Made by a program: the position numbers and the translations under genes
Shown here: piece after piece, positions 2,777 to 29,346 of the stretch
How positions within the stretch are numbered: position 1 is the first letter of the stretch
Layout of the letters: each line of letters opens with the position of its first letter
Assembly: GCA_964642155.1 (NCBI GenBank)
Contig: CAZXNT010000003.1
Location: 64,899 to 128,898, forward strand
Source of the DNA: an uncultured Candidatus Saccharibacteria bacterium
Lineage (GTDB): Bacteria > Patescibacteriota > Minisyncoccia > UBA6257 > UBA9933
DNA: 64,000 bases
Direction of reading: 5' to 3'
The notes under the pieces: generated by a model
What the model was told of the DNA's origin: nothing
The model's database searches: none
What the model saw: only the letters and a program-made list of their open reading frames with translations

Positions 2777-4554
2777 TTTATTATTTTTTTGAACACTTCC
2801 GCCGATATCCTCACCTGCGCCATGCTCAATAATTTCTTTTTCCCTTTTTTCTGCTTTTTCCATAATTTCATTTTACGCGTTCTATCGCCACCGTAAAGAT
2901 ACCCCGTAACGTCTTTTTTCATTGCGGACATGGTTTCCCGAGCGACAATTCTGCCGCCAGCCACCGCCTGAATTGCCTGACTAAACTGCTGACGCGGTAA
3001 AACATCTTTCAATTTTTCCACCATTTTACGCGCTTCATATTCAAGTTTTTTGCGCGGCACCACGCGTACCAACCCGGCAACCGACGCGTTAGCGACTAAA
3101 ATTTCCATTTTTTCAAGCTCAGCTTTTTGATAATCCGTCAATTCATAATTGAAAGAAGCGAATCCTTCGGAAACAGATTTCAACCGGTCATCAAAATCTG
3201 AAATAAGCTCAGCCAAGGGCATTTTAGCGGTTATTAAAATTATTCCTTCGGTCCCCAAATTATTCGTCGCTATATTTTCCATTCTGAAAATTTCTTTCAA
3301 TTGCAAAATTCCTCCGAGGTGTTCGCTTGGTGAAATAATTTCCAAATTTATCATCGGCTCTAAAATTTCCTTAATGTCATCCGGCAAATCCGCTGGATTA
3401 TCTATTATTAAATTATTAACTTTATAAGCGACTGACGGAAAACTGTTTATTGTTTTTATATCAAATTCTTTTTCCAAACGTTCAGCGGTAATTTCAAAAT
3501 GAAGCTTACCCAAGAAACCGACTTTAAATCCACGCCCAAGTACCTCATTAAAATCCGCTTCAAATTTTAAAGACGAATCATTTAGTTTCAACCGGCCAAA
3601 CGCTTTTTTCAAATCGTCGTATTGGTTACTTTCTTCGGGATAAAAAGAAACAAACACAACCGGCTTCGGTTCGTCATAGCCTGGCAAAGCCAAGTTCGCA
3701 AACTCACGCTGACTCAACGCAGAATTACGCAGAATGGTATCGCCAATTTTAATGTGACTTGGGTCTTTCAAGCCGGTGGCGATATAGCCGATTTCACCGA
3801 CTGATAATTTACCAATCGGCTTTAATTGCGGTAAAAAATATCCGATTTCTTTCATTTTAAATTTTTCATCGGCAGCTATTAAATACGCTTCTTCATTAAC
3901 ATTAAATTCTCCGTTAAAAACACGAATGGAAGCAATAATACCTTTGTGGTCGTCGTAAAATGAATCAAAAATGAGAGCGCGGGACGCGCTTGATAAATTT
4001 TCATTAAGATTTGGAATTTTTTCTATAATTTTTTTTAAAAGTTCTTCCACGCCTTTGCCGGTTTTAGCGGATATTTTATGAATTTCTTCCGGCTCACAGC
4101 CGATTAAATCCGCCAAATCTTTTATTCTTCTGCTTAATTGCTCTTCGCCGCTTATTAAATCAACCTTATTAATAGCGCCGATAATTTTAAGTCCGGATTT
4201 TTTAGCAGCATAAAATTTTGCCAAAGTTTGCGCTTGAATTCCCTGCGTTATATCAACAAGCAAAATCGCGCCTTCAACAGCCGCCAATGCCCGCGATACT
4301 TCGTAAGAAAAATCAGAATGCCCGGGCGTATCAATCATATTTAGAATATAATTTCCATAAATCATCCGTACCGGCGCCATTTTAATAGTGATTCCCCTTT
4401 CCCGTTCCGATTCCAAAGAATCCAAAAACTGCTCCTTCATTTGCCGGCTGTCAACGGTTTTGGTAATTTCCAAAAACCTGTCCGCCAAAGTTGATTTGCC
4501 GTGGTCAATATGACTGATTATCACGAAATTTCGGATATTTACAGCATTATTCAT
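2773..4554 (-). CDS. lepA: elongation factor 4 (LepA)
   Basis: GTPase G1 motif HIDHGKST, LepA-specific C-terminus, 593 aa. Confidence 0.9.
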   Translation of the reverse strand: MNNAVNIRNFVIISHIDHGKSTLADRFLEITKTVDSRQMKEQFLDSLESERERGITIKMAPVRMIYGNYILNMIDTPGHSDFSYEVSRALAAVEGAILLVDITQGIQAQTLAKFYAAKKSGLKIIGAINKVDLISGEEQLSRRIKDLADLIGCEPEEIHKISAKTGKGVEELLKKIIEKIPNLNENLSSASRALIFDSFYDDHKGIIASIRVFNGEFNVNEEAYLIAADEKFKMKEIGYFLPQLKPIGKLSVGEIGYIATGLKDPSHIKIGDTILRNSALSQREFANLALPGYDEPKPVVFVSFYPEESNQYDDLKKAFGRLKLNDSSLKFEADFNEVLGRGFKVGFLGKLHFEITAERLEKEFDIKTINSFPSVAYKVNNLIIDNPADLPDDIKEILEPMINLEIISPSEHLGGILQLKEIFRMENIATNNLGTEGIILITAKMPLAELISDFDDRLKSVSEGFASFNYELTDYQKAELEKMEILVANASVAGLVRVVPRKKLEYEARKMVEKLKDVLPRQQFSQAIQAVAGGRIVARETMSAMKKDVTGYLYGGDRTRKMKLWKKQKKGKKKLLSMAQVRISAEVFKKIIK

Positions 4555-8386: not shown

Positions 8387-8393
8387 TTTTCTA

Positions 8394-8430
8394 CCCCGCC
8401 AGTCCATGGACTGGCGGGGTCTTTTATTTT
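8394..8430 (+). terminator. rho-independent terminator (perfect palindrome)
   Basis: CCCCGCCAGTCCA|TGGACTGGCGGGG then TCTTTTATTTT. Confidence 0.65.
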
Positions 8431-12722: not shown

Positions 12723-13583
12723 CTACGGACTCCAATTTATAATCACATCGGTTACTGTCGGGGAATTCGTTCCGGAAGCGTCAGAATATAAAAATATTTT
12801 GTAACGGAAATATCTTTGATTGTTATGATACGCCAAATTTATTTGAGTCGAAATTCCCGTGTTCGCCGGAGCGTAATAAGTTGTTGCCGAACCGTCCGGA
12901 CCCTTGTAATCCCATGGTCCAGCAGCGCTGTTTGACGAAGCGATTTGAAATTTAACGCTTGTTCCGCTCAACTGCGTTCCTTGCCACATAATGGTATTTA
13001 TCGCTGAACCGCCAATTGCCCAAGTGTCAAAAACCGAAGAAACTAAACTGCCAGAAGTGGATGTTGAAACAGAACTTGTTTTAACTTTATAATCGGACGG
13101 TGAACAACCGCCAGCGCCGGAATTAACGCAATTAAAACTAAACCAGCCGACATTATCATTCCACGCCCAGCCGGAAAAATCGCCGTTTGACGGATTAACA
13201 AAAACGCCATAAGCCTGGCTTTGTGTTGTTGTACCGGAAAAACTGAGCCAACCAAAATTATCATTCCAAGCATAACCGCTCAAACTTCCGGTTCCGTCTT
13301 TTAAAACTTTAAAATCGCTCGTTCCGCAAACATTACCGCTCGGCGAAGTAGCGCAATCAAGTGCGATAAAGCCGATTGATGAAGAAGCGTAGCCAGTCAG
13401 TTGTGTTGAAGAGACATTGACATTATTCGTCGTATAAAAATCAACCCAACCGATTACATCATTCCAGGCATAGCGGTAGGTTGAATCAATATTGGTGGCG
13501 GCGGAAACAGTAGTAAGTAGAAAGTAGATAGTAGATAGTAAAACAACGAGGCACACCGCAAAAATAATTTTTATTTTAAACAT
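12723..13583 (-). CDS. secreted protein with three W-A-W-N-D-x-x-G-W-x-x-F repeats
   Basis: Signal peptide. Repeats YAWNDVIGWVDF / YAWNDNFGWLSF / WAWNDNVGWFSF. Paralogous repeat block in 15650..16822. Confidence 0.55.
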   Translation of the reverse strand: MFKIKIIFAVCLVVLLSTIYFLLTTVSAATNIDSTYRYAWNDVIGWVDFYTTNNVNVSSTQLTGYASSSIGFIALDCATSPSGNVCGTSDFKVLKDGTGSLSGYAWNDNFGWLSFSGTTTQSQAYGVFVNPSNGDFSGWAWNDNVGWFSFNCVNSGAGGCSPSDYKVKTSSVSTSTSGSLVSSVFDTWAIGGSAINTIMWQGTQLSGTSVKFQIASSNSAAGPWDYKGPDGSATTYYAPANTGISTQINLAYHNNQRYFRYKIFLYSDASGTNSPTVTDVIINWSP

Positions 13584-13696
13584 ATTTTAATTTATTTTAT
13601 CATAATCCAATTATCATTACAAATTACCTATGTTCAATTTCGTATAAATTTTTATATAAATTATCGCAGATATTAAATTTTATATCTTTAATCTTT

Positions 13697-13720
13697 CTTG
13701 CTATCCCATAGGATAGCAAG
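13697..13720. promoter_or_regulatory. palindrome CTTGCTATCC-cata-GGATAGCAAG (candidate operator)
   Basis: Perfect 10-bp arms. Family member of 8 related palindromes around the two TrpR-like genes. Confidence 0.5.
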
Positions 13721-13772
13721 AATAGTTGAGTTAAATTGAGATTACGGGGCCTGATCACGAAATCTTTAATTT

Positions 13773-13800
13773 CCCTTACAATCCTATGAAATAGCAAGGG
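13773..13800. promoter_or_regulatory. degenerate copy of the CTTGCTATCC palindrome
   Basis: CCCTTACAATCC-tat-GAAATAGCAAGGG; right arm intact, left arm degenerate. Confidence 0.3.
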
Positions 13801-13929
13801 TTTTGTATAAAAAATTAAAAAAAATACCCCGTTAGAAATAATACCTCTTTGTTCTACGGCGAGGTTACATTTTAGAATAATTCTGGCGGGGTCTAATGCC
13901 CCGCTGGAATTTCTAACGGGGTTTACTTT

Positions 13930-14454
13930 TCAATTTATTAATTTCTTTCTCCGCCTTGGCATTGTTGGGTCAAGGAATTTCCATCTCCCCTTTCCGGATG
14001 CGTTCGGCAATCTGTCAAATATCTCATCCATAATATTAATGATATCCGCCATTCCGTCCGCCATATCGCTAAATGAAAATTGAAGAAAATGTTTTGGTGT
14101 TTTATCTGATTTATTGTTATTTTTATTTTTTTTGGAAATTTCAAAATAACTCTTATATTCGCCGTTTCCAATACTTTTTTTAATTGAACTAATGGTGTTC
14201 GGAGACAGCCAAAGAATTTCGCTGATTTGGTGATAATTCATTCCTTTTTTAAATAAAGAAATGATCGCCAATCTCCTGATAATATTTCTTTTTTCTTGAT
14301 TGGTTAATAAATTATTTAAAAATAATTCTAATTTTTTATTGCTCGCGATTTTTGAAAACTCTTTCCAAAGATAGTTTTCCCATTCTTTCCGGGACGAAAA
14401 TTCGGAAAGATTTTTTATATTTTCCATAATTTTAAATTTTGATATTTTAAGCAA
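13930..14454 (-). CDS. TrpR/YerC-like helix-turn-helix regulator (paralog 1)
   Basis: SRKEWENYLWKEF... and HTH QISEILWLSPNTISSIKKS. Paralog of 28218..28745. Confidence 0.55.
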   Translation of the reverse strand: MLKISKFKIMENIKNLSEFSSRKEWENYLWKEFSKIASNKKLELFLNNLLTNQEKRNIIRRLAIISLFKKGMNYHQISEILWLSPNTISSIKKSIGNGEYKSYFEISKKNKNNNKSDKTPKHFLQFSFSDMADGMADIINIMDEIFDRLPNASGKGRWKFLDPTMPRRRKKLIN

Positions 14455-14496
14455 AATAGAATATTAAGATAAAACATTAATAAGATTTTAAAACAT

Positions 14497-14534
14497 CCTT
14501 GCTCTTGCTATCTTATAGGATAGCAAGAGCAAGG
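14497..14534. promoter_or_regulatory. 38-bp palindrome CCTTGCTCTTGCTATC-N-GATAGCAAGAGCAAGG
   Basis: 16-bp perfect arms, in promoter region of TrpR-like gene. Confidence 0.5.
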
Positions 14535-14614
14535 AAAAAAGCAAACAAAATAGACAAGGAATAGTAAGAAGAATGATAGAAGAGCAAGAAGAAAAAGAAT
14601 AAAGAGGATATATT

Positions 14615-14640
14615 CCTTGCTATCCTGTAGGATAGCAAGG
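14615..14640. promoter_or_regulatory. palindrome CCTTGCTATCCT-gt-AGGATAGCAAGG
   Basis: 12-bp perfect arms, upstream of TrpR-like gene. Confidence 0.5.
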
Positions 14641-14903
14641 AAAAGAATAGGTGGAATACTTAAACAGATTAATAGAAAAACGGAAATATAAAAAAATCAC
14701 TCTAAAATGGCTAAAAGAAATTGATTTGGGCAACGAAAAAATAAAAAAGTTAACTCTGGAATAAATTATTGACTTACGAAGTCAATAAGATTGGGGTAAT
14801 TATTTATTTTCTAACGCTTCAATTCTTGATTTTAATTCTTTGATCTCAGTGTCTTTTTCCGCTTTGAGTTCTTTAATTGTCAACCATTGTCCCTATTTAT
14901 TTT

Positions 14904-15649: not shown

Positions 15650-16822
15650 CTACGGACGCCAGCTAGTTTTCACCTTATAATTAACCGTTCCGCAAGTGCT
15701 TGTGTTGGAACAATTGAACGAAACCCAACCCTTGATATCGTTCCACGCCCAGCCGGAAAATTCTCCCGTAGAAGTATTGATAACGACCTGATACGTTGGA
15801 TTTGACGGACAAACCCAATTACTGCCACTTAAAGTTGAACCGCCGGAAGCGTTTCCGCAAAAACTTGTCCAGCCGATTCCATCATTCCACGCCCAACCTG
15901 CCAAATTTCCGCTCGCGTCATTGGAAACTTTAAAATTACTCGTCCCGCAAATATTATTATTCGGCGTGGAATTACAATTCAAAGCGACAAAACCGACTGA
16001 TAAACTTGCGTATCCTTCAAGCCGGTCAGAATAAACTTTTACATTGCCTGTTGAAAATCCGAAATCAATCCAGCCAATTAAGTCATTCCATGCCCATTTG
16101 TCCGTTGAATCAATGGTGCCAGTGGCGTTACTGCCCCCCCCCGCAGCGCCGCTAATCGTTATTGCGCCCGTTGAACTTGAATAATTAATATTGGTTGAAC
16201 TGGCGAATTTATTGTTTATTAAAGTGTTATTGGTGCTGGTTGAAAAAAATTCTTGATTATTACCGCCGCTCCAATCGGTCTGAATAAAAACTTTATTCTG
16301 GTTCCGCGTCAGATATTGGATTTTATTCAGATTGCGTCCGCCTTCCCAATTTACATAAACCATTATTTTTTGAGTTGAAGGGTCATCCGCAATTCCGCTG
16401 TCGCCCACAGCCGCGCAGGAAGTAGTGGCGTTAGTTGTGATATTGCCGATGCCGCATAAATCACGACTTGCGTTTTCAATTAAAAAATAACGGGTAAAAT
16501 TTTTGCCTTCAATAATAGTAGTGGTAGCGCCGGAAACCAACGCAAAAGCCGTGCCCGAAGCAGTTAAATAAAATTGTGAGTCCACTCCTTTACTCGCCGG
16601 TGGAATATAAACTTTTTGCCAGTCGGAATAAGCGAGCGATTGAAGATTATCAATATATTCCGAAGCCAAAGACAAAGCGATTTGCGCTGTTTTGGTGTCA
16701 AAATTACTTCTTAACACAACAACGATCGTTGTGGCCGCCGCGCCGATTAAAATAGTGGCAATCGCCATGCCGATAATGACTTCTATTAAACTTTGTCCCT
16801 TATTAGTATTGAATCTGTCCAT
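15650..16822 (-). CDS. minor pilin (prepilin-type N-terminus) with C-terminal WAWND repeat domain
   Basis: KGQSLIEVIIGMAIATIL prepilin cleavage/methylation-type N-terminus. Repeats KWAWNDLIGWIDF / GWAWNDGIGWTSF / GWAWNDIKGWVSF. Confidence 0.6.
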   Translation of the reverse strand: MDRFNTNKGQSLIEVIIGMAIATILIGAAATTIVVVLRSNFDTKTAQIALSLASEYIDNLQSLAYSDWQKVYIPPASKGVDSQFYLTASGTAFALVSGATTTIIEGKNFTRYFLIENASRDLCGIGNITTNATTSCAAVGDSGIADDPSTQKIMVYVNWEGGRNLNKIQYLTRNQNKVFIQTDWSGGNNQEFFSTSTNNTLINNKFASSTNINYSSSTGAITISGAAGGGSNATGTIDSTDKWAWNDLIGWIDFGFSTGNVKVYSDRLEGYASLSVGFVALNCNSTPNNNICGTSNFKVSNDASGNLAGWAWNDGIGWTSFCGNASGGSTLSGSNWVCPSNPTYQVVINTSTGEFSGWAWNDIKGWVSFNCSNTSTCGTVNYKVKTSWRP

Positions 16823-17261
16823 TTGTGTTAACGATTATTGTTTTGGAAATTGACGCGTCTCTTTTAAGGGAAATTATAATAGTGGTTGACGCGTTCGGCA
16901 AACCGCTGACCGGAGCGAAAATAACGTCTTTGCTGTTTCCGGATGTTGGGTCGGAAAATTGAATAGTCGGCCTAAACGAATTTTTAGAGATTATCGTTCC
17001 AGTGGCATAAGTCGTTCCGGAAAATAAATCGTAAAATCCGCCGCTGGAAACTGAATTTTCAAAATGAATGCCATAATGGCTGCTTGATTCCTGCGAGATT
17101 GACCTATCCTGCGCGTTTCTTAAAATTATCGTAATTTCCCGCGCCGTTAAATCAAGGTCTTGCGTTCCGCGATAACCGAAAAGATTTAAAAAAGAAACCG
17201 TGGATACAACTGCAATAATGCCGATAGTTATTAATAATTCTATAAGTGTAAAGGCTCTCAT
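16803..17261 (-). CDS. type IV pilus pseudopilin/minor pilin
   Basis: MRAFTLIELLITIGIIAVV prepilin N-terminal domain. Confidence 0.7.
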   Translation of the reverse strand: MRAFTLIELLITIGIIAVVSTVSFLNLFGYRGTQDLDLTAREITIILRNAQDRSISQESSSHYGIHFENSVSSGGFYDLFSGTTYATGTIISKNSFRPTIQFSDPTSGNSKDVIFAPVSGLPNASTTIIISLKRDASISKTIIVNTNGQIQY

Positions 17262-17262
17262 T

Positions 17263-18474
17263 TTAGAATTGTCCTACTAACTGATATATCGGCACGATGA
17301 CCGCCAAAGCGATGGTGCCGATGATAAGTCCGATAACCAAAAGCAAAATCGGCTCCAAGAATGAAACCATTGATTTTATCGCGGTCTCTATCTCCGAAGT
17401 GTAAAAATCAGCCAAGGTCGTTAAAATGCTTTCCATATGGCCGGCCTTTTCAGAAATTGACATCAGATTAACCACCACTCTCGGGAAAGTCGGCTCTTTG
17501 CGAAAAGCTTCGCCGATGGTCAAACCTTTGGAAATTCCTTCCCGCGCTATTCTGCGTAAGCTTGTTTTTAATTCTTCATTTCCGACGGCATCAGCGGTGA
17601 TTTCCAGAGAATCAAGGATCGGCAATCCCGAAGAAAGTAATGCCGAAAATGTTGAAGCAAACCGCTGTAAGGCTATTTTTTTAAGAACTCCTCCGACAAT
17701 CGGCGTTTTTGCGATAAATCTTGAAAAAAGTTTTATTCCGATAATAGACTTTGTTATAAAAAACCAAGCGCCAACTAAAAGAATAATTATAAAAACCAAA
17801 ATAAACAAAAAATATTTTCCCATAAAAAGGCCGATTGCAAAAACGATTTTTGAAAATAACGGCGGCTCAAAACCTCCGGACGTAAAAATGTTGGCGATTT
17901 TTGGAAGCGCGAAACTCACCAAGAGGAAAAGAATCGCGGCCGAAGCGGTTAAAAGAATAATTGGATAAGTAATCGCCGCTTTAATCTGCCGTCTTAAATC
18001 CTGCTCTTTTTGCAAGGCAATGCTTAATTGATTAAAAACAAGTTCCAAATTTCCGGAAGTTTCTCCGGCTTTAATCATATTTATAAAAACCGAGGAGAAA
18101 AATCTCGGATACCTGACAAACACGGAATGAAAGGGCTGTCCCTTTTCCAGTGAAGTCCTGATTTCCATCAATAAAGCTTTAAGCGCCGGCTTTTCAAAAT
18201 CAGCGATTAAAATATCAATCGCCCTTAAAAGGTCAGTGCCGACTCTTAGCATTAAAGCCAGATACTTAGTGAGAAAAACCTTGTCTTCAACGTCAATTGA
18301 CTGGCTAAAAATTTTAAACCGGCCGGTTTTTGAAAGTTCTTTCGGCGCTTTTAATGAAATCGGCCTTAATCCCTGGCTGGCGAGAAACCCCAAAACTTCA
18401 GCCACACTTTCAGCTTCATGGTCGCCTTCAATTATTTTCCCATTGGATTGTGATGCAATATAATGAAACCTCAT
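17263..18474 (-). CDS. pilC: type IV pilus assembly platform protein PilC (GspF family)
   Basis: Two GspF repeats, 403 aa, three TM segments. Confidence 0.85.
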   Translation of the reverse strand: MRFHYIASQSNGKIIEGDHEAESVAEVLGFLASQGLRPISLKAPKELSKTGRFKIFSQSIDVEDKVFLTKYLALMLRVGTDLLRAIDILIADFEKPALKALLMEIRTSLEKGQPFHSVFVRYPRFFSSVFINMIKAGETSGNLELVFNQLSIALQKEQDLRRQIKAAITYPIILLTASAAILFLLVSFALPKIANIFTSGGFEPPLFSKIVFAIGLFMGKYFLFILVFIIILLVGAWFFITKSIIGIKLFSRFIAKTPIVGGVLKKIALQRFASTFSALLSSGLPILDSLEITADAVGNEELKTSLRRIAREGISKGLTIGEAFRKEPTFPRVVVNLMSISEKAGHMESILTTLADFYTSEIETAIKSMVSFLEPILLLVIGLIIGTIALAVIVPIYQLVGQF

Positions 18475-18640
18475 CCCTCACCCTTCAAAGATTTTAATTT
18501 TCATTTAAAAAATGAAAAATATTAATTCTTTGAATTTTTATTTTTATTTGAATTTTTATCCACTTACTCTTCAACCCCTCACCCTTTAATTTTAAAGGGT
18601 GAGGGGTTATTTTTTCAAAATATCTTTGAAGGGTGAGGGA
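18474..18640. repeat. IR-bounded element (19-bp perfect terminal inverted repeats TCCCTCACCCTTCAAAGAT) with internal 32-bp perfect palindrome
   Basis: Left IR 18474-18492, right IR 18622-18640 (exact reverse complement). Central CCCCTCACCCTTTAA|TTAAAGGGTGAGGGG 18575-18606. Fills the entire pilB-pilC gap. Confidence 0.6.
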
Positions 18641-20350
18641 TTATTCTCGTATTACACGAAACACTTCTTCTATCGTTGTCATTCCCAATTCGGATTTTCT
18701 CAATCCATCTTCAAACATCGTAATCATCCCTTTATTTTTCGCCAATTTTATCAAATTGTCCAAAGAAAAATTAGGATTAATAATTTCCTTACGGCTATCT
18801 TCATTAATATTTAAAATTTCAAAAATTCCTATTCTACTATAATAACCCGTATTACCGCAACTCATACATCCCTTACCTTGATATAAAATTTTCGGCGCCC
18901 TAAATTCAAATTCAAGATTTAATTCTTTTAATTGTTTTTTAATGGAATTTAACAAATCTTCCGACGGCACAAATGAACTAATACAATCCAAACAAATTTT
19001 TCTAACCAAACGCTGAGCAACAATCATATTTAAAACAGCGGCGGTTAAAAATTGCGGAATTTTCATATCAATCAAACGCGGAATCGCGGTTGCCGCGTCA
19101 TTAGTGTGCAAGCTGGATAAAACCAAATGGCCGGTTAAAGCTGAATGCACAGCAATTTCAGCGGTTTCTTCATCACGAATTTCTCCGACCATAATAATAT
19201 TCGGGTCTTGCCGAAGTATTGAACGCAATCCGCTTTCAAAAGTGATTCCCGCCAAAGGATTAATTTGAATCTGATTGATATATTTCATATTGTATTCAAT
19301 CGGGTCTTCAATGGTCACTATATTCACTTCCGGCCTGTTTAAAATGTTTAAAATGGCGTAAAGCGTGGTGGTTTTTCCGCTGCCGGTCGGTCCAGTTACA
19401 AGAATCATTCCGTAAGTTTTTTTAATATTTTCTTCAACGATTTTAACCATATCATCCATCAACCCGACTTCTCTTAAAGAAAGCGGTTTTTGGGCCGCGG
19501 GCAAAAGCCTCATTTCTATCTTTTCGCCGTAAAAAGTCGGAATAATGGAAATCCTGATATCAACTAAATCCGAACCGACTTTATAATGAGTTCTACCATC
19601 TTGTGGCCTCTGATGTTCGTCTATTTTTAAAGCCGCGAGCAGTTTAATCCTTGCCACAATCGCCGGATGAACTTCTTTCGGAATTTTGGTTATTTCATGA
19701 AGAACGCCGTCAATCCTGAATCTCATTAAAATTCCGTCTTCAAAAATTTCCATATGAATATCCGAAGCGCGCAAAGAAAAAGCATAAAAAAGAATATTAT
19801 CAATAAGGGCGACGATGGGAATCGCCGAGGCCGCTTCTTCAACTGTGCCGGCCTTTTGCCTCAATGACGCCTGAATATTTTCTTCAACTATTTTTTTAAA
19901 ATTTTCCGCAAAACGGCGGCTATACATCGCAAATCCTTTGTTTAAATCGTCTTGAGTCGCAAGATACGGCTTGATATTAGCTTTTAAATTATTTCTCAAA
20001 AATTCCACCGTTCCCAAATCACTCGGATCTTCCATGGCAACGCTAATGCTCCCATTGGACTCCTTGTCAAAAACAATAACCATTTTTTGCTTGGCTAAAT
20101 TTTCAGCAAGAAGATTAAGAATTCCTTCGTCTATTTTTCTGCCGATTAAATTGGCTTTCTGAACATTAAAATAATCCGCTATAACATCATAAAAATAATC
20201 TGTTGTGATAATATTGCGCGAAATCAAAATATCGCCGATATTCTGGTCCATATGCTTCGCCTCGCTTACCAAAAAGTCAAAATTTTCCTCAGTTATCAAA
20301 CTATCTTTAATTAAAATCTCTTTTAATTTTTTATCGGGAATTTTAAGCAT
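18641..20350 (-). CDS. pilB: type IV pilus assembly ATPase PilB (GspE family)
   Basis: Walker A GPTGSGKTTT, Asp box, His box, tetracysteine motif CLDC...CMSC, 569 aa. Confidence 0.9.
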   Translation of the reverse strand: MLKIPDKKLKEILIKDSLITEENFDFLVSEAKHMDQNIGDILISRNIITTDYFYDVIADYFNVQKANLIGRKIDEGILNLLAENLAKQKMVIVFDKESNGSISVAMEDPSDLGTVEFLRNNLKANIKPYLATQDDLNKGFAMYSRRFAENFKKIVEENIQASLRQKAGTVEEAASAIPIVALIDNILFYAFSLRASDIHMEIFEDGILMRFRIDGVLHEITKIPKEVHPAIVARIKLLAALKIDEHQRPQDGRTHYKVGSDLVDIRISIIPTFYGEKIEMRLLPAAQKPLSLREVGLMDDMVKIVEENIKKTYGMILVTGPTGSGKTTTLYAILNILNRPEVNIVTIEDPIEYNMKYINQIQINPLAGITFESGLRSILRQDPNIIMVGEIRDEETAEIAVHSALTGHLVLSSLHTNDAATAIPRLIDMKIPQFLTAAVLNMIVAQRLVRKICLDCISSFVPSEDLLNSIKKQLKELNLEFEFRAPKILYQGKGCMSCGNTGYYSRIGIFEILNINEDSRKEIINPNFSLDNLIKLAKNKGMITMFEDGLRKSELGMTTIEEVFRVIRE

Positions 20351-22843: not shown

Positions 22844-22920
22844 TTTTAAAATATATCAAAACAAACAATAAAAAACAATACCCGCAAATGCGGGTATTGT
22901 TTTTTTCTAATTTCTAAACT

Positions 22921-24645: not shown

Positions 24646-25113
24646 TTAATAAGTAGGAGCAGAAGCAGGAGTAGGATAAGTAGGACTTTGTGTTTGAGAT
24701 GCGCCACTATTGCCTCCGCCACTCGAAGGGCCAATAATGCTTCCGACTATCGCGTTTATGCTTACCGCCAGCAAAGCTACGGCAATCGCTATAGAGGCGT
24801 AAATAATTTGGTTGGTGGCGCTTTTAATTTTTTCCGGTTCGGCTTGGGCGGTCAAATAAGTATAAGCCGCCAATAAAATCATAAACACCGCGACAATGAA
24901 GAAAATTGTGTAAGTCCATCTAAGAACCGTCATAAGAATGACGACTACTCCTTCAAACCTTGAAATACCCGCTCCTTTGGGAATAAGAGGATTTGTAGTA
25001 GGAGAAGCAACTTCACCAGTATAAGGAATAACAGCATTAACAAAATTACATGACAAAAAAACGCTAAATAATATAATTATTGATAAAATAATAAAATTTT
25101 TTCTAATAAACAT
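24646..25113 (-). CDS. T4SS-pilin-like protein (paralog 3)
   Basis: Conserved YLTAQAEPEKIKSA core. Start set to MFIRKN to avoid overlap. Confidence 0.5.
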   Translation of the reverse strand: MFIRKNFIILSIIILFSVFLSCNFVNAVIPYTGEVASPTTNPLIPKGAGISRFEGVVVILMTVLRWTYTIFFIVAVFMILLAAYTYLTAQAEPEKIKSATNQIIYASIAIAVALLAVSINAIVGSIIGPSSGGGNSGASQTQSPTYPTPASAPTY

Positions 25114-25114
25114 T

Positions 25115-25468
25115 TTATTTAATAAAATTTTTAATAATTTCATTAGCGCCGACGGAAATTAAAGCCACGGCAATGGAGATAGCGGCATAAATAATTTTGT
25201 GATTTGCACTTTTAATTTTTTCCGGGTCATCGCCGCCGGTTAAATAACTGAATGCCGCCAAAATAACAAATCCAATTGCCACTATAAAAAATGCTGTGTA
25301 AAGAACATTAACAATTTTTGTTAAAATATTCATTACATCGTTTATGCCTGTTACTGGACAATCTACGCTTGTATTACCAGGACATGGTTTAGCAAAACCA
25401 ACAGCCGGGAAAATAATTATTAAATAAAAAATTGTTAAAAATAATAAAATTTTTGAGAATTTATTCAT
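25115..25468 (-). CDS. T4SS-pilin-like protein (paralog 4)
   Basis: YLTGGDDPEKIKSA core. Confidence 0.5.
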   Translation of the reverse strand: MNKFSKILLFLTIFYLIIIFPAVGFAKPCPGNTSVDCPVTGINDVMNILTKIVNVLYTAFFIVAIGFVILAAFSYLTGGDDPEKIKSANHKIIYAAISIAVALISVGANEIIKNFIK

Positions 25469-25941
25469 TTTTTTGTTGAGATAAACGCATCCGACTTATT
25501 GGTTATTATTTCTCCCATTATATAAATAACTCCCCAAGAACACAAGACAATAATATAACCCACCACCGCCCAAAGAATGACATCCTTGCCGGATTTCACT
25601 TTTTCCGGACTGTCGCCCGCGGTCAAAATAAGAAAACCGCCGTAAATCACCATAATCGCCAAAATCGGCGCGCCAATTTTAATAAGATAACCGATAATGT
25701 TTTGGATAATGGTGAAAATTGTTTTACCGGCGAAGGGGTCTTGGAGGTTACCATTAGATGATCCTCCTTGAGCATAAGGTGAACCCTGACCAAGGGGCAA
25801 TGGACCAATAAAATTAGCATCGCCTGGCTGCGGCGCTGCCATTACAATATCATTATTAATGACAAAAAATAAACCACCAAAAGAAATAATAAATATTATA
25901 ATCAAATATAAAAACTTATTTCTGAAAAATAATTTAATCAT
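25465..25941 (-). CDS. T4SS-pilin-like protein (paralog 5, divergent)
   Basis: LTAGDSPEKVKSG core, 2 TM. Confidence 0.45.
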   Translation of the reverse strand: MIKLFFRNKFLYLIIIFIISFGGLFFVINNDIVMAAPQPGDANFIGPLPLGQGSPYAQGGSSNGNLQDPFAGKTIFTIIQNIIGYLIKIGAPILAIMVIYGGFLILTAGDSPEKVKSGKDVILWAVVGYIIVLCSWGVIYIMGEIITNKSDAFISTKK

Positions 25942-26086: not shown

Positions 26087-26881
26087 TTATATTTTGGTTA
26101 TTCTTATTAAGGTATCAGGTTGGATACCCTTAAGACCCAATCTCCCAATAGATCCTGTGCCGTTCCAATATGAAACGCCGGTTGGCATTTCATACTCTTT
26201 TATTCCCACAACTGAATCCCAAGAAAGAGCAATGAATGGCTTATCGCTTTCTAAGCGGTGATGTGTTCCAGAGGACACAACCACTGTTTGAATTTCTTTC
26301 CCGACTTGCAGATAGAACTCTTCTATCGGGGAAATTGCCGCTACCGACGCGCCAGCATTCGTAATTTTTAACGGCTTCGATTCAAACTTACCCGCCGCTT
26401 TATCTCTCCCCCCGAGGAAAAAAATAATGGTTAAGATAATAGCAATAAGTGCCATAGCGCTAATTGCCGTCTTCTGTATCCTTCCTTTTGTTCCAATCGC
26501 AAGGAAAAATATCGCAACAGCAACCAAAACCACTACGGGAACCAATCCTCGGTCATTCCAAACCGGAACGATTGAAAAATAAACTCCGAGAACCAATTCC
26601 GCGGCAATTATTGTGGCAATCCAAGCAAGAACCGTGCGGCCTTTTTTAAAGGCGGCGACTACGGCTATTATAATTGGATCAATAGCGGCAATAATAGAAA
26701 ACGCTATCGCCACAACCGGTATTAAGGCCGCTATGGACGTTACTGCAGGAGAGCCTATTAAAGCTACCCCGCAAATCAATATCGGCCATAATACTATCAA
26801 TAAAATCGCAGCCCGCGCAATTCTATTCCCTGTGTTCCAAAGAGCGACGAATATCGCCCATAATTCTTGCAGAGTGTTCAT
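26087..26881 (-). CDS. polytopic membrane protein with soluble C-terminal domain (hypothetical)
   Basis: About six TM helices. Locally GC-richer codon usage. Confidence 0.45.
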   Translation of the reverse strand: MNTLQELWAIFVALWNTGNRIARAAILLIVLWPILICGVALIGSPAVTSIAALIPVVAIAFSIIAAIDPIIIAVVAAFKKGRTVLAWIATIIAAELVLGVYFSIVPVWNDRGLVPVVVLVAVAIFFLAIGTKGRIQKTAISAMALIAIILTIIFFLGGRDKAAGKFESKPLKITNAGASVAAISPIEEFYLQVGKEIQTVVVSSGTHHRLESDKPFIALSWDSVVGIKEYEMPTGVSYWNGTGSIGRLGLKGIQPDTLIRITKI

Positions 26882-27534
26882 TATCTTATCCCCCTTTCTG
26901 CCATAATTTTTCTGAAACCGCCGAGTTTCTGAGCAACAGCTTGATCAGTTTTTTTAATGGTATCGCTTATCTGGAATTCCTGATTGAATTCCTTACTGAA
27001 CTCTATAAGTCCGTCTGAGAATTCACGGAATCCCTTGATAAAAGACTTCCACTTTTTCTGCCAATCAATTGGTTCATCGACCGGCTCGGTTTTTACCTCT
27101 AACTTTGGCTTTGGTTTTGCATCTTCAATAAGCTTAAGAAGCGCCAGCCGACACTCAAATTCTATTTTCATTCTTTCGGCTTCCGCTTTTGGATCTTTGG
27201 ATTTTTTAAGACGCCATTTCGCGTCGTTAAAAAATTCATCCATCCAATCTTCCACTGCCCCTTTTTTCTCTTTTTCTGAAGCTCCGCCAAGCGCTCCGGT
27301 AAAAAAATCGCTAAAATCAATGGCTTTCTCAACCGCTATCGCAGCAGTTGGTGGTAACTTTTCAGCCATGGATTCAACAAATCCTTTTACAACGCCTTGC
27401 GCCACTCCAAAAAGGTCTGAGCGCAAGTAGCTATTTGTTGGAATCTTTTTTGCCAACTTTTGCGCCCAGTTTTTTAAAACCGGATCAAGGGCGCCAATAG
27501 CTGCGCCTAAAAATTCCTTTTTCTTTGCCATCAC
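26881..27534 (-). CDS. hypothetical charged protein
   Basis: 217-aa ORF start-overlapping downstream gene; GC-richer than neighbours. Confidence 0.4.
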   Translation of the reverse strand: MMAKKKEFLGAAIGALDPVLKNWAQKLAKKIPTNSYLRSDLFGVAQGVVKGFVESMAEKLPPTAAIAVEKAIDFSDFFTGALGGASEKEKKGAVEDWMDEFFNDAKWRLKKSKDPKAEAERMKIEFECRLALLKLIEDAKPKPKLEVKTEPVDEPIDWQKKWKSFIKGFREFSDGLIEFSKEFNQEFQISDTIKKTDQAVAQKLGGFRKIMAERGIR

Positions 27535-27780
27535 ATCCTCCTCGGCTATTCAGCCATTCAGTTTTTTATTTTCAATCATTTTTAATTTTTAAGGTCCAAA
27601 ATCAAAAGACAAAGCCTCTTGATTTATGGCCAAATAATAACATAGGAGTTCAAAAAAGTCAACCCCATGCAAAACCGGTTCAAGAAACTAACGCAACATA
27701 AGTAAATCGAAGTTTTTCTCTATTGTTTATTCTTTTGCTTTTTTACTATTTTTCTTTATTTTTATATTATTATTCTTCTC

Positions 27781-27806
27781 TTCTGCTATCCCCAGGGATA
27801 GCAGAA
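27781..27806. promoter_or_regulatory. palindrome TTCTGCTATCCC-ca-GGGATAGCAGAA
   Basis: 12-bp perfect arms. Confidence 0.5.
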
Positions 27807-27903
27807 ATATTTCTTGGATTTATTTTGTAAATCTTACAAGGTTAAACCTTGTAAATAATTTTGAGAGTAATAATTTTATAAACAAACGCTATCACTAAAA
27901 TGT

Positions 27904-27929
27904 TCCTGCTCTCCCTGGGGAGAGCAGGA
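27904..27929. promoter_or_regulatory. palindrome TCCTGCTCTCC-ctgg-GGAGAGCAGGA
   Basis: 11-bp perfect arms. Confidence 0.5.
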
Positions 27930-28083
27930 TAAAAAAGACATAAGAAAAAATAAGAACATAAAAATATAAGGGGAAAATAAAAAAAAGAAATGAAAGGGGG
28001 GAATAAAATAAAGGAAATAAAATAAAGAATAAAATAAAAAAGATAAAAATAAAAAATGAAGAAAGTGAAAAATAAAAATAAAT

Positions 28084-28109
28084 TTCCTGCTCTCCCCATG
28101 GAGAGCAGA
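28084..28109. promoter_or_regulatory. palindrome TCCTGCTCTCC-ccat-GGAGAGCAGaA
   Basis: One mismatch. Confidence 0.45.
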
Positions 28110-28217
28110 ATAGAATATAATATAAAGAAAACACAAAAGGTCGACCTTAATAATTAATGATAAAAAATAATAAAAATTAAAATTTAATTCATTTATAATT
28201 TATAATGATATAATTTT

Positions 28218-28745
28218 ATGATTAATTTATTTATGAAACATCTTTCTTCTGAAAATTCCATAAAACAACTCCCAGAATTTAAATCAAGAAAAGAATGGCA
28301 AGAATACATTTGGCAAGAATTTATAAAAAAACTTTACAAAGCAAAATCGGCAAAACAAACGCAAGAATATCTGGAAAGTTTTTTAAGCGCGAGAGAGCGA
28401 GATTTAATTATTAAACGAATAATTGCCACTGCCTTAATCAGCCAAGGTAAAAAATACAGAGAAATAGGAGAAATTTTATGGCTATCCCATAACACAATTA
28501 GCGCCATTAAAAAGGGTCTTTTAAAAAAGACTATTTATCACGGATATAAATATTATCGCGTTCAAAAATTAAAAAACGGCCCTGATAATAAAAATTCACT
28601 TAAAATAACGATTGATAATTTAGGAGAGGCGACTTTGGATTTTGTAAATTGGCTTTCTCGATTACCGATTTCACCGGCAGCGATTAAATATGGAAAACTC
28701 TTTAATTCATATGAGCAAGATAAGGCAAAATATAGTAAAAAATAA
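28218..28745 (+). CDS. TrpR/YerC-like HTH regulator (paralog 2)
   Basis: SRKEWQEYIWQEF... and HTH EIGEILWLSHNTISAIKKG. Paralog of 13930..14454. Confidence 0.55.
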   Translation: MINLFMKHLSSENSIKQLPEFKSRKEWQEYIWQEFIKKLYKAKSAKQTQEYLESFLSARERDLIIKRIIATALISQGKKYREIGEILWLSHNTISAIKKGLLKKTIYHGYKYYRVQKLKNGPDNKNSLKITIDNLGEATLDFVNWLSRLPISPAAIKYGKLFNSYEQDKAKYSKK

Positions 28746-28798
28746 AAATAAATTAAAAATAAAATATTCTTGAACTTAAATACTGCTTTGATTAATTT

Positions 28799-28830
28799 TA
28801 TCCTTGCTCTCCCTGGGGAGAGCAAGGATT
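28799..28830. promoter_or_regulatory. palindrome ATCCTTGCTCTCC-ctgg-GGAGAGCAAGGAT (possibly also terminator)
   Basis: 14-bp perfect arms followed by TTTTT. Confidence 0.5.
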
Positions 28831-28920: not shown

Positions 28921-29346
28921 TCAAGGACAATTCAAATACCTTTTGCCTCCCCATTCCCAAGGGACGAAACTACCGCCGCCGACAGCGGAAAGAACCATAT
29001 TAATAATCATCCATGCGCCGAGCGCGATTAAAACTCCGACAATGGCGGATTGAATCATTTTTCTGCCTTGTGAAACTTTTTCCGTGGAATCGCCGGCAGT
29101 CATAATCGTCAATCCGCCCCAAACGATAAAAACAACGACCAAGGGAATGGCGATATTATAGAGAGCGAAATTAATAACATTTCCAATTAATATAATCAGA
29201 TCACAAAATTGACAACCTTTTCCGCCATGAGAATCCGGTCCGCAAGGAACCAAAGGATCAGCCGCTTGCGCGCTAACAACGGTAACTAGTAAATAGAAAA
29301 TAGTAACTAGTAAAATAATTTTGAATTTTGATTTTTGATTTTGCAT
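28921..29346 (-). CDS. T4SS-pilin-like protein (paralog 6)
   Basis: LTIMTAGDSTEKVSQG core. Signal peptide near-identical in style to 12723..13583. Confidence 0.5.
   Translation of the reverse strand: MQNQKSKFKIILLVTIFYLLVTVVSAQAADPLVPCGPDSHGGKGCQFCDLIILIGNVINFALYNIAIPLVVVFIVWGGLTIMTAGDSTEKVSQGRKMIQSAIVGVLIALGAWMIINMVLSAVGGGSFVPWEWGGKRYLNCP

Follow-up and report, generated by a model that had tools for sequence, protein, structure and literature searches.

Paralogous TrpR/HisR-like regulators with putative self-flanking operators in a Candidatus Saccharibacteria genome

Two paralogous genes encoding regulators, named W1 and W2, were analyzed in a 64-kb stretch of DNA from an uncultured Candidatus Saccharibacteria bacterium (GCA_964642155.1, contig CAZXNT010000003.1, positions 64,899-128,898 of the forward strand; hereafter the window), which has a low GC content of 36.6%. 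On the evidence of profile scores and fold, both proteins are members of a branch of the TrpR/HisR (PF01371) repressor family that is specific to the Candidate Phyla Radiation (CPR). Each gene is flanked on both sides by copies of a 20-bp dyad, which the encoded protein probably binds, thereby regulating its own expression. Comparison with homologous loci showed that the inner bases of the dyad co-vary with one residue of the recognition helix, and the whole is best described as a putative autoregulated TrpR/HisR-like repressor whose self-flanking operators appear to co-evolve with it. To our knowledge, almost nothing is known about the control of transcription in the CPR (Patescibacteria). 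These bacteria are not cultivable on their own and possess few regulators, and the loci described here give a rare view of gene regulation in this little-known group.

Two paralogous regulators of the TrpR/HisR family

W1 and W2 both passed the gathering threshold (27 bits) of the Pfam family PF01371 Trp_repressor, with 35.0 and 30.3 bits, respectively. They shared 45% identity across the N-terminal 88 residues (E = 4e-23), which bears out the homology assumed in the preliminary description of this DNA; their C-terminal tails differed. The AlphaFold2 (AF2) model of W2 had a predicted local distance difference test (pLDDT) score above 90 over residues 20-100. When this model was compared with the PDB using Foldseek, the top 34 matches were all TrpR, 3KOR, 3FRW or 3G1C. 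These TrpR-like matches had target-normalised template modelling (TM) scores of 0.65-0.73 and probabilities of at least 0.95, with E-values of only 0.03-0.4. In a profile search of PDB sequences, the best natural-protein matches were again 3KOR, 3FRW and 3G1C (YerC/HisR type), and hhalign placed N92 of W2 opposite A80 of Escherichia coli TrpR.

An exhaustive HMMER search yielded a family of 208 clusters at E <= 1e-10 and 1012 at E <= 1e-3. The proteins are 140-175 aa long, carry SRKEW...W as an N-terminal motif and end in a tail of ~60 aa that often contains G-K-G-R-W-x-F-L. All relatives of the window loci came from metagenome-assembled genomes (MAGs) of Patescibacteria/CPR, namely Wolfebacteria, Paceibacterota, Harrisonbacteria and records labelled 'Saccharibacteria'. 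Searches of Pfam, NCBIfam, PHROGs and PADLOC found no nuclease, transposase, phage, defence or other catalytic domain in the regulators and gave matches of the helix-turn-helix (HTH) type only. No relevant description of a CPR branch of the TrpR/HisR family or of its operators was found in the literature searched.

The two proteins are not orthologs of TrpR or HisR/YerC, as indicated by several features taken together. Their scores of 30.6 and 23.9 bits did not reach the cut-off of the TrpR equivalog TIGR01321 in NCBIfam (67.25 bits), and for TIGR02531 (YerC/YecD, cut-off 42.2 bits) W1 scored 23.6 and W2 was not listed. In addition, the operator consensus is different, trp or his genes are not neighbours, extra N- and C-terminal segments are present, and the equivalent of TrpR R84 is replaced.

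Seven dyads in the window

The dyads of the window follow the pattern TGCT-N-TC-N6-GA-N-AGCA, with a constant span of 20 nt from TGCT to AGCA. A regular-expression search and a pattern search identified exactly seven, three at W1 (locus 1) and four at W2 (locus 2, sites A to C upstream and D downstream; Table 1), all within 500 bp of one of the two genes. The pattern TGCTNTCNNNNNNGANAGCA with at most one mismatch gave 7 matches against 0.06 expected, and 0 of 100 shuffles reached this number. No weaker copies were detected elsewhere in the window, where a 16-base version with 3 mismatches returned the same 7 only (0.19 expected). The four palindromes reported around W2 in the preliminary description were all recovered at their positions. 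Its total of eight for both loci has to be lowered to seven intact copies, because the eighth is a decayed relic with four differences from the consensus.

The two loci differed consistently at the inner positions, as had been proposed. The dyads of locus 1 (TTGCTATCC) carry ATCC or ATCT, while those of locus 2 carry CTCC in three cases (sites B and C, CTGCTCTCC; site D, TTGCTCTCC) and ATCCCC in one (site A, CTGCTATCC). The gene nearest to site A is the divergent 26881-27534 (-), and site D is located between the convergent genes W2 and the T4SS-pilin-like 28921-29346 (-). Two small palindromes that are unrelated to the dyads were also seen upstream of W2, TTACAAGGTTAAACCTTGTAA between sites A and B (27834-27854) and AAGGTCGACCTT between site C and the gene (28137-28148).

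The dyad beside homologous genes in other genomes

Homologous loci (designated L with a number) were gathered by exact look-ups, one genome scan and one metagenome scan with an 8-sequence alignment as query, and duplicates were removed. This gave 41 distinct loci, comprising 39 from other CPR genomes plus W1 and W2; with seven more fetched later, ~48 loci were compared. L006, L027 and L066 came from Hainich samples. Dyads of the format (T)[G/A]CT-NNN-N6-NNN-AG[C/T](A) were present beside the gene in 38 of the 41 distinct loci (116 sites) and both upstream and downstream of it in 34, and a dyad also accompanied the gene in the seven loci added later. Six of the latter, which had been picked by helix class, showed the same layout as the earlier ones. 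The centre of the proximal upstream dyad was located ~30-160 nt before the coding start, and that of the proximal downstream dyad 13-81 nt past the stop codon in 28 of 36 loci. In the DNA covered, such palindromes were not abundant away from the regulator, as the preliminary description would require: none occurred elsewhere in the window, and in ~170 kb of flanks only 3 of ~120 sites were more than 700 bp from a regulator gene.

The genome CAYOSD01 was found to contain both paralog types with different dyads (L009, GCTTCTATT; L016, GCTATCCTA). The earlier interpretation as a duplicated regulator-operator pair that has diverged in specificity is thus backed by the Pfam and fold assignments, by the association of dyad and gene across loci, by the co-variation described below and by this second genome.

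Arrays of 3-8 palindrome copies were seen among the loci. In L055 the dyads are part of tandem 51-bp units with a GGGTTAGAAGAGGCAGTCTTGGATTTT-like spacer, three upstream (2261-2401) and five downstream (3099-3321), and in L053 (2181-2445) four upstream dyads are part of tandem units of ~80 bp. In several MAG contigs (e.g., L009, L010, L016, L020) the regulator gene is less than ~800 bp from one end of the retrieved stretch; repeated dyads or low-complexity tracts may break assemblies and so give contig ends near the regulator.

The neighbouring genes differed between clades and included rsmA, rtcB, a Mur ligase gene, uvrD, thrS, rpsM and genes of surface proteins. A conserved regulated neighbour was therefore rejected. 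No trp or aro genes were located beside the regulator at any locus, and no his genes were adjacent. A mobile cassette was likewise rejected, since synteny was kept within clades while the palindromes differed and no transposase, phage or defence domain was present.

Co-variation of the recognition helix and the operator triplet

The recognition helix has the consensus W-[LIV]-S-x1-x2-T-I-S-x-I-K-K. The x2 site, between the invariant S and the directly following invariant T, was the most variable position in 100 family members (N 25, Q 22, S 20, A 11, T 8, R 4, V 4, G 2), and the remaining helix is near-invariant. Profile alignment to E. coli TrpR equated x1 with Ile79, x2 with Ala80 and the following T, S and A with Thr81, Thr83 and Arg84. 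All five TrpR residues are listed as DNA-contacting (PMC9413887).

The residue at x2 was compared with the triplet, defined as the three bases after [G/A]CT in the half-site. N was accompanied by ATC (22/25), S by ACC (4/5), G by TCC or TCT (5/5, from two separate clades) and Q by ATG (3/3; L062, L064 and L017). A was accompanied by ACG or ACA in two loci (L066, L065), and single loci had P with TTC, T with ATC and R with ATC. The Q loci L062 and L064 and every A, R and V locus were added once the rule was already apparent and represent an out-of-sample test. The mutual information between x2 and triplet was 1.65 bits compared to 0.68 in shuffles, and none of 5000 shuffles reached the observed value. 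The x1 residue (P/H) had no family-wide association with the operator (p = 0.19) and was rejected as specificity determinant. In the preliminary description the divergence of the two regulators had been tied to their recognition helices. The quoted helices are right and the P/H, S/A and S/G differences are real, but they do not track the operator across the family.

The contrasts within clades are more telling evidence than the shuffle p-values. W2, L009, L010/L027 and L069 are orthologous; W2, L009, L010 and L027 have convergent T4SS-pilin-like and solute-binding-protein genes downstream in common, while the contig of L069 is too short to show its neighbours. In this clade the pairs of x2 and triplet are N/CTC (W2, L069), G/TCT (L009) and S/ACC (L010, L027). 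Orthologous syntenic loci thus have different dyads, indicating that specificity changes in place. Since L069 has a helix identical to that of W2 and also uses CTC, this triplet is a stable specificity of the sub-clade rather than drift. In the W1 clade, ATC-CTA was kept in every member. The change from ATC to CTC in W2 is not explained by the main specificity residue, as x2 is N in both paralogs. The change from P to H may matter in the sequence context of W2, since L029 (WLSPNTISAIKKGL) uses ATC; H occurs together with ATC in other loci (L004, L037, L050).

The comparison indicates that the inner half-site triplet largely sets specificity and co-varies with the second variable residue of the helix, the equivalent of TrpR Ala80, and that regulator and operators have changed together in place. 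If so, the operator of this family can be read directly from a genome, with one helix residue (N, G, S, Q, A and others) appearing to set the inner triplet. The paralogs now use different dyads, ATC-CTA for W1 and CTC-CCY for W2, and would therefore be mostly insulated from each other; site A (ATC-CCC), being of the ATC class, is a possible point of cross-regulation by W1. The pair may represent a natural example of duplicated regulators becoming insulated, with specificity shifting in place between orthologs and paralogs.

Putative promoter overlap and predicted autorepression

In 23 of 36 loci (64%), the 20-bp core of the proximal upstream dyad is followed on the gene strand by a -10-like hexamer that begins no more than 20 nt away. 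The corresponding rates were 24% at random upstream positions and 12-28% after distal or downstream sites. In several loci TGnTATAAT directly follows the dyad just 7-15 nt before the ATG, suggesting leaderless or short-leader mRNAs. At locus 2, a candidate -10 box 8 nt after site C would place this site over the -35 region and spacer. A promoter scan of the window gave 6 sites versus 8.3 expected and was uninformative in AT-rich DNA.

By analogy with TrpR and HisR, each protein would bind, as a dimer, the 20-bp dyad TGCT-NNN-N6-NNN-AGCA, copies of which it would find on both sides of its own gene. The dyad nearest to the start codon would cover the -35 region and spacer of the regulator's own promoter, which is the classical position for autorepression and suggests that the protein represses itself. 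The dyad past the stop codon and the distal dyads may be extra binding sites that allow cooperative binding, looping around the gene or insulating roadblocks. At locus 2, the additional dyads may also control the divergent operon on the pilin side.

Purine tracts, extended symmetry and copies inside rsmA

Three tracts with strong purine or pyrimidine bias were detected in the window (Table 1). They are the sole ones in 64 kb and all abut dyads. Purine or pyrimidine tracts were also found at the dyads of L006 (2019-2403), L012 (2672-2754 and 3424-3513) and L016/L045/L048 (L016, 447-607), while most loci have none. The tracts are 50-240 nt long and contain 60-68% A, 15-32% G and at most 7% C. 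A-tract phasing at 10-11 bp was not found in the purine tracts, and curved DNA was rejected on this ground. Open reading frames (ORFs) of 31-32 aa had been called downstream of the regulator in L004-L007; those of L006 and L007 proved to be translated purine tract, and these two were dismissed.

The symmetry of the dyads reaches beyond the 20-bp core to about +-13-15, with extensions peculiar to each site. These extensions are likely to come from template-switch symmetrisation of quasi-palindromes; the alternative is a wider protein footprint.

In the clade with rsmA (ksgA) downstream of the regulator, palindrome-plus-purine-tract modules were present in frame inside rsmA as lineage-specific inserts. 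The rsmA of L012 (3307-3500) has two dyad copies in an insert of ~65 aa. The in-frame dyads are at 2477-2522 and 2919-2940 in L014 and at 1002-1033 in L049; the two loci have a common insert encoding ALPYRE(A/V)P, in which the dyad matches each locus's own type. The insert peptides include ATASCSK..., RSRVALPYREAPPCF, ALPYREVP and DAMTCHSV. The dyad at 2919-2940 of L014 (GCTATGACA) is Q-type and therefore of another class than the regulator of the locus, in which no Q-type gene was found.

Alternative explanations

Several observations weigh against a plain autoregulatory operator. Exceptions to the x2 code are L013, where S is paired with ATC, L034, where N is paired with ACC, and W2/L069, where N is paired with CTC, and the p-values from shuffling overstate independence owing to the phylogenetic relatedness of the loci. 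For W2 itself the overlap with a promoter is uncertain, as three more TATAAT boxes (28194, 28201 and 28209) are closer to its ATG than the candidate box, and site C is ~110 nt from the ATG. No regulated target besides the regulator gene itself was identified among the loci compared. Moreover, the symmetry to +-13-15, the abutting polypurine tracts, the tandem 51- and 80-bp units and the copies in rsmA are left unexplained by an operator model. The polypurine tracts and the in-frame copies inside a gene suggest a further process at the level of DNA. One form of it, in which palindrome and polypurine tract constitute a locally self-propagating module with the TrpR-like protein as its co-evolving cognate binder, was judged unlikely. 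If true, it would be a new kind of repeat-protein partnership in the CPR, similar to REP/RAYT or Rickettsia elements but with no transposase, and possibly a boundary or roadblock element in regulator-poor genomes. A related proposal is that the palindrome, in many cases together with its polypurine tract, is primarily a selfish repeat that proliferates locally in the manner of REP/REPIN or Rickettsia palindromic elements, and that the TrpR-like protein is its cognate partner (mobiliser, silencer or domesticated binder) instead of an ordinary transcription factor. It would account for the cognate repeats on either side of the regulator gene, an arrangement known from RAYT genes and REPs, for the arrays and tandem units, for at least two independent in-frame insertions in rsmA (L012; L014/L049) and for arm symmetry past the core. 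However, the protein has no nuclease or transposase domain, the copies are confined to the surroundings of the gene (no others in 64 kb, 3 distant ones in ~170 kb of flanks), the loci are syntenic and vertically inherited, and the promoter position and co-variation with a DNA-contact residue fit a transcription factor and its operator. A selfish repeat was thus considered improbable.

It is very improbable that the palindromes are RNA hairpins, acting as terminators or stabilisers that bracket a small gene and unrelated to the TrpR-like protein, although many arms extend well past 10 nt, which favours a hairpin, three of the four sites of locus 2 had a terminator-like listing on one or the other strand, and T-runs come after site D and a few further sites. 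Complementarity was retained in 97, 92 and 87% of sites at positions +-4, +-3 and +-2, respectively, and in 51% at +-1 (28% expected). These central 2-4 nt cannot pair in a hairpin loop, which argues for a DNA dyad. On the gene strand, at least five T in the next 8 nt were found at 5 of 54 downstream and 6 of 62 upstream sites, so that 49 of the 54 downstream sites have no T-run; an intrinsic terminator was rejected as general role of the dyad. The terminator function suggested earlier for site D is plausible for this site alone, where the run is marginal (TTTT), and does not extend to the family. In addition, the proximal upstream copy precedes a -10-like box instead of following a gene, changes in the dyad go along with changes of a residue in the adjacent protein, and W1 has a separate conventional terminator-like structure. 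Rfam at gathering thresholds found four tRNAs only in the whole window, and at both loci the matches were sub-threshold generic hairpins only, on which basis a known RNA family was rejected. The multiple, regularly spaced copies at several loci might instead be iteron- or centromere-like sites of a replication, partition or chromosome-organisation protein, as in ParB/parS, RTP/Ter or Tus/TerB. The fold class of TrpR includes DnaA domain IV, and genes of such proteins are often located beside their sites. Against this, neither locus has a GC-skew switch, for which reason an origin or terminus was rejected. Furthermore, one genome has two loci at a distance of 14 kb, the adjacent genes have housekeeping functions and vary between clades, and the dyads are perfectly symmetric and hence non-polar. 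Such a function was regarded as hardly credible. Autoregulation by a TrpR/HisR-like repressor through its flanking dyads remains our preferred reading.

Neighbouring genes and other features of the window

Locus 1 is flanked by a type IV pilus cluster, comprising the T2SSE ATPase PilB, the T2SSF platform protein PilC and two N_methyl pseudopilins, and by two WAWND-repeat proteins. Locus 2 has T4SS_pilin (PF18895)-like paralogs on both sides, with three tandem small ORFs at 24646-25941 and one at 28921-29346. The PF18895 match was confirmed for 25465-25941 and 28921-29346 and was weak for 25115-25468. The adjacency to pilin and pilus genes stressed in the preliminary description is therefore true in the window, but it is kept only inside each sub-clade, with housekeeping neighbours elsewhere. 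The position of the paralogs at the edges of the type IV pilus and T4SS-pilin-like clusters makes control of surface structures a concrete hypothesis, and such structures matter for the episymbiotic lifestyle of these bacteria.

Downstream of W1, a long inverted repeat followed by a U-run had a fold energy of -44.5 kcal/mol (z = -5.9) and is likely the intrinsic terminator of W1. Exactly the same 12-mer arms are located by homologs in divergent genomes, in L009 (416/502) and L065 (761/789), and also in L069 (~592-630), with loops of 16-74 nt. In these three loci the CCCGTTAGAAAT/ATTTCTAACGGG repeat is immediately upstream of the start codon, in contrast to its position downstream of W1. It matched no Rfam family. 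Perfect inverted repeats with arms of 17-18 nt were also present at 8393-8420, 18573-18608 and 22870-22905; their sequences are unrelated to the dyad family and they are probably ordinary terminators.

Table 1. Regulator genes, dyads and other features of the window (positions count from its first nucleotide)
Feature	Position	Strand	Description
W1	13930-14427	-	TrpR/HisR-family regulator, paralog of W2, 165 aa from ATG; recognition helix W-L-S-P-N-T-I-S-S-I-K-K
W2	28218-28745	+	TrpR/HisR-family regulator, 175 aa; recognition helix W88-L-S-H91-N92-T-I-S-A-I-K-K
Site A	27781-27806, core 27784-27803		Dyad TTCTGCTATCCCCAGGGATAGCAGAA; halves TGCTATCCCC / AGGGATAGCA; ATC triplet, locus-1 class
Site B	27904-27929, core 27907-27926		Dyad TCCTGCTCTCCCTGGGGAGAGCAGGA; halves TGCTCTCCCT / GGGGAGAGCA; CTC class
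Site C	28087-28108, core 28088-28107		Proximal upstream dyad of W2, CTGCTCTCCCCATGGAGAGCAG; halves TGCTCTCCCC / ATGGAGAGCA; CTC class
Site D	28800-28829, core 28805-28824		Dyad downstream of W2, ATCCTTGCTCTCCCTGGGGAGAGCAAGGAT; perfect 14-nt arms, then TTTT
Locus-1 proximal upstream dyad	14496-14535, core 14506-14525		Halves TGCTATCTTA / TAGGATAGCA; arms extended to 17 nt
Locus-1 distal upstream dyad	14613-14642, core 14618-14637		
Locus-1 downstream dyad	13695-13722, core 13699-13718		
Decayed locus-1 dyad copy	13775-13799		CTTACAATCCTATGAAATAGCAAGG
Candidate -10 box	28116-28121	+	TATAAT
Polypurine tract	27940-28082	+	Between sites B and C; whole spacer (27927-28087) 68% A, 16% G, 2.5% C
Polypyrimidine tract	27713-27763	+	Directly to the left of site A; the - strand is rich in purines
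Polypurine tract	14547-14612	+	Between the two upstream dyads of locus 1
Long inverted repeat	13828-13839 / 13909-13920	-	Arms CCCGTTAGAAAT / ATTTCTAACGGG, then U-run; downstream of W1
Genes flanking locus 1	12723-13583 and 15650-20350		Type IV pilus cluster and WAWND-repeat proteins

Comparison with known systems

Among the closest known systems is HisR/YerC-YecD. Palindromes of 20 bp were reported as binding sites of TrpR and HisR, with such a site upstream of hisR itself in about half of the cases (PMC9413887). The putative operator of the CPR family has the 20-bp palindromic format of HisR sites, and HisR is often autoregulated through an upstream site (PMC9413887). Both have the same fold, a conserved Tyr in helix one of the HTH and a T-I-S core in the recognition helix. 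However, the CPR proteins are longer (140-175 aa, with the N-terminal motif and the C-terminal tail, versus less than 110 aa), and the operator consensus is TGCTATC-N6-GATAGCA instead of cacTTTA-N6-TAAAgtg, the latter being found upstream of his genes or transporters. The CPR sites flank the gene at either end and form arrays, and the residue at the Ala80 position, which is conserved in HisR/YerC-YecD, is hypervariable.

E. coli TrpR is a dimeric repressor with a palindromic operator that overlaps its own promoter. It has the Pfam family, the fold and the HTH register in common with W2, and its W19, E47, R54, R69 and T81 correspond to W32, E60, R67, R81 and T93 of W2. Among the tryptophan-binding residues T44, R54 and R84, the counterparts in W2 are S57, the invariant R67 and A96, the last being A, S or T throughout the family. 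The CPR family differs from TrpR in having extra N- and C-terminal segments and no link to tryptophan metabolism.

The third comparison is with REP/REPIN-RAYT systems and Rickettsia palindromic elements. As in those systems, the gene is single-copy, inherited vertically and accompanied on either side by palindromes of its own class, the repeat sequence differs between gene lineages, and palindromic modules occur in frame in a housekeeping gene, here rsmA. In contrast to REP/RAYT, W1 and W2 have no HUH/Y1 transposase or other catalytic domain, and the repeats are not dispersed in the 64 kb of the window or in ~170 kb of flanks. The dyads of the CPR family instead appear to lie over promoters and co-vary with a contact residue of the HTH.

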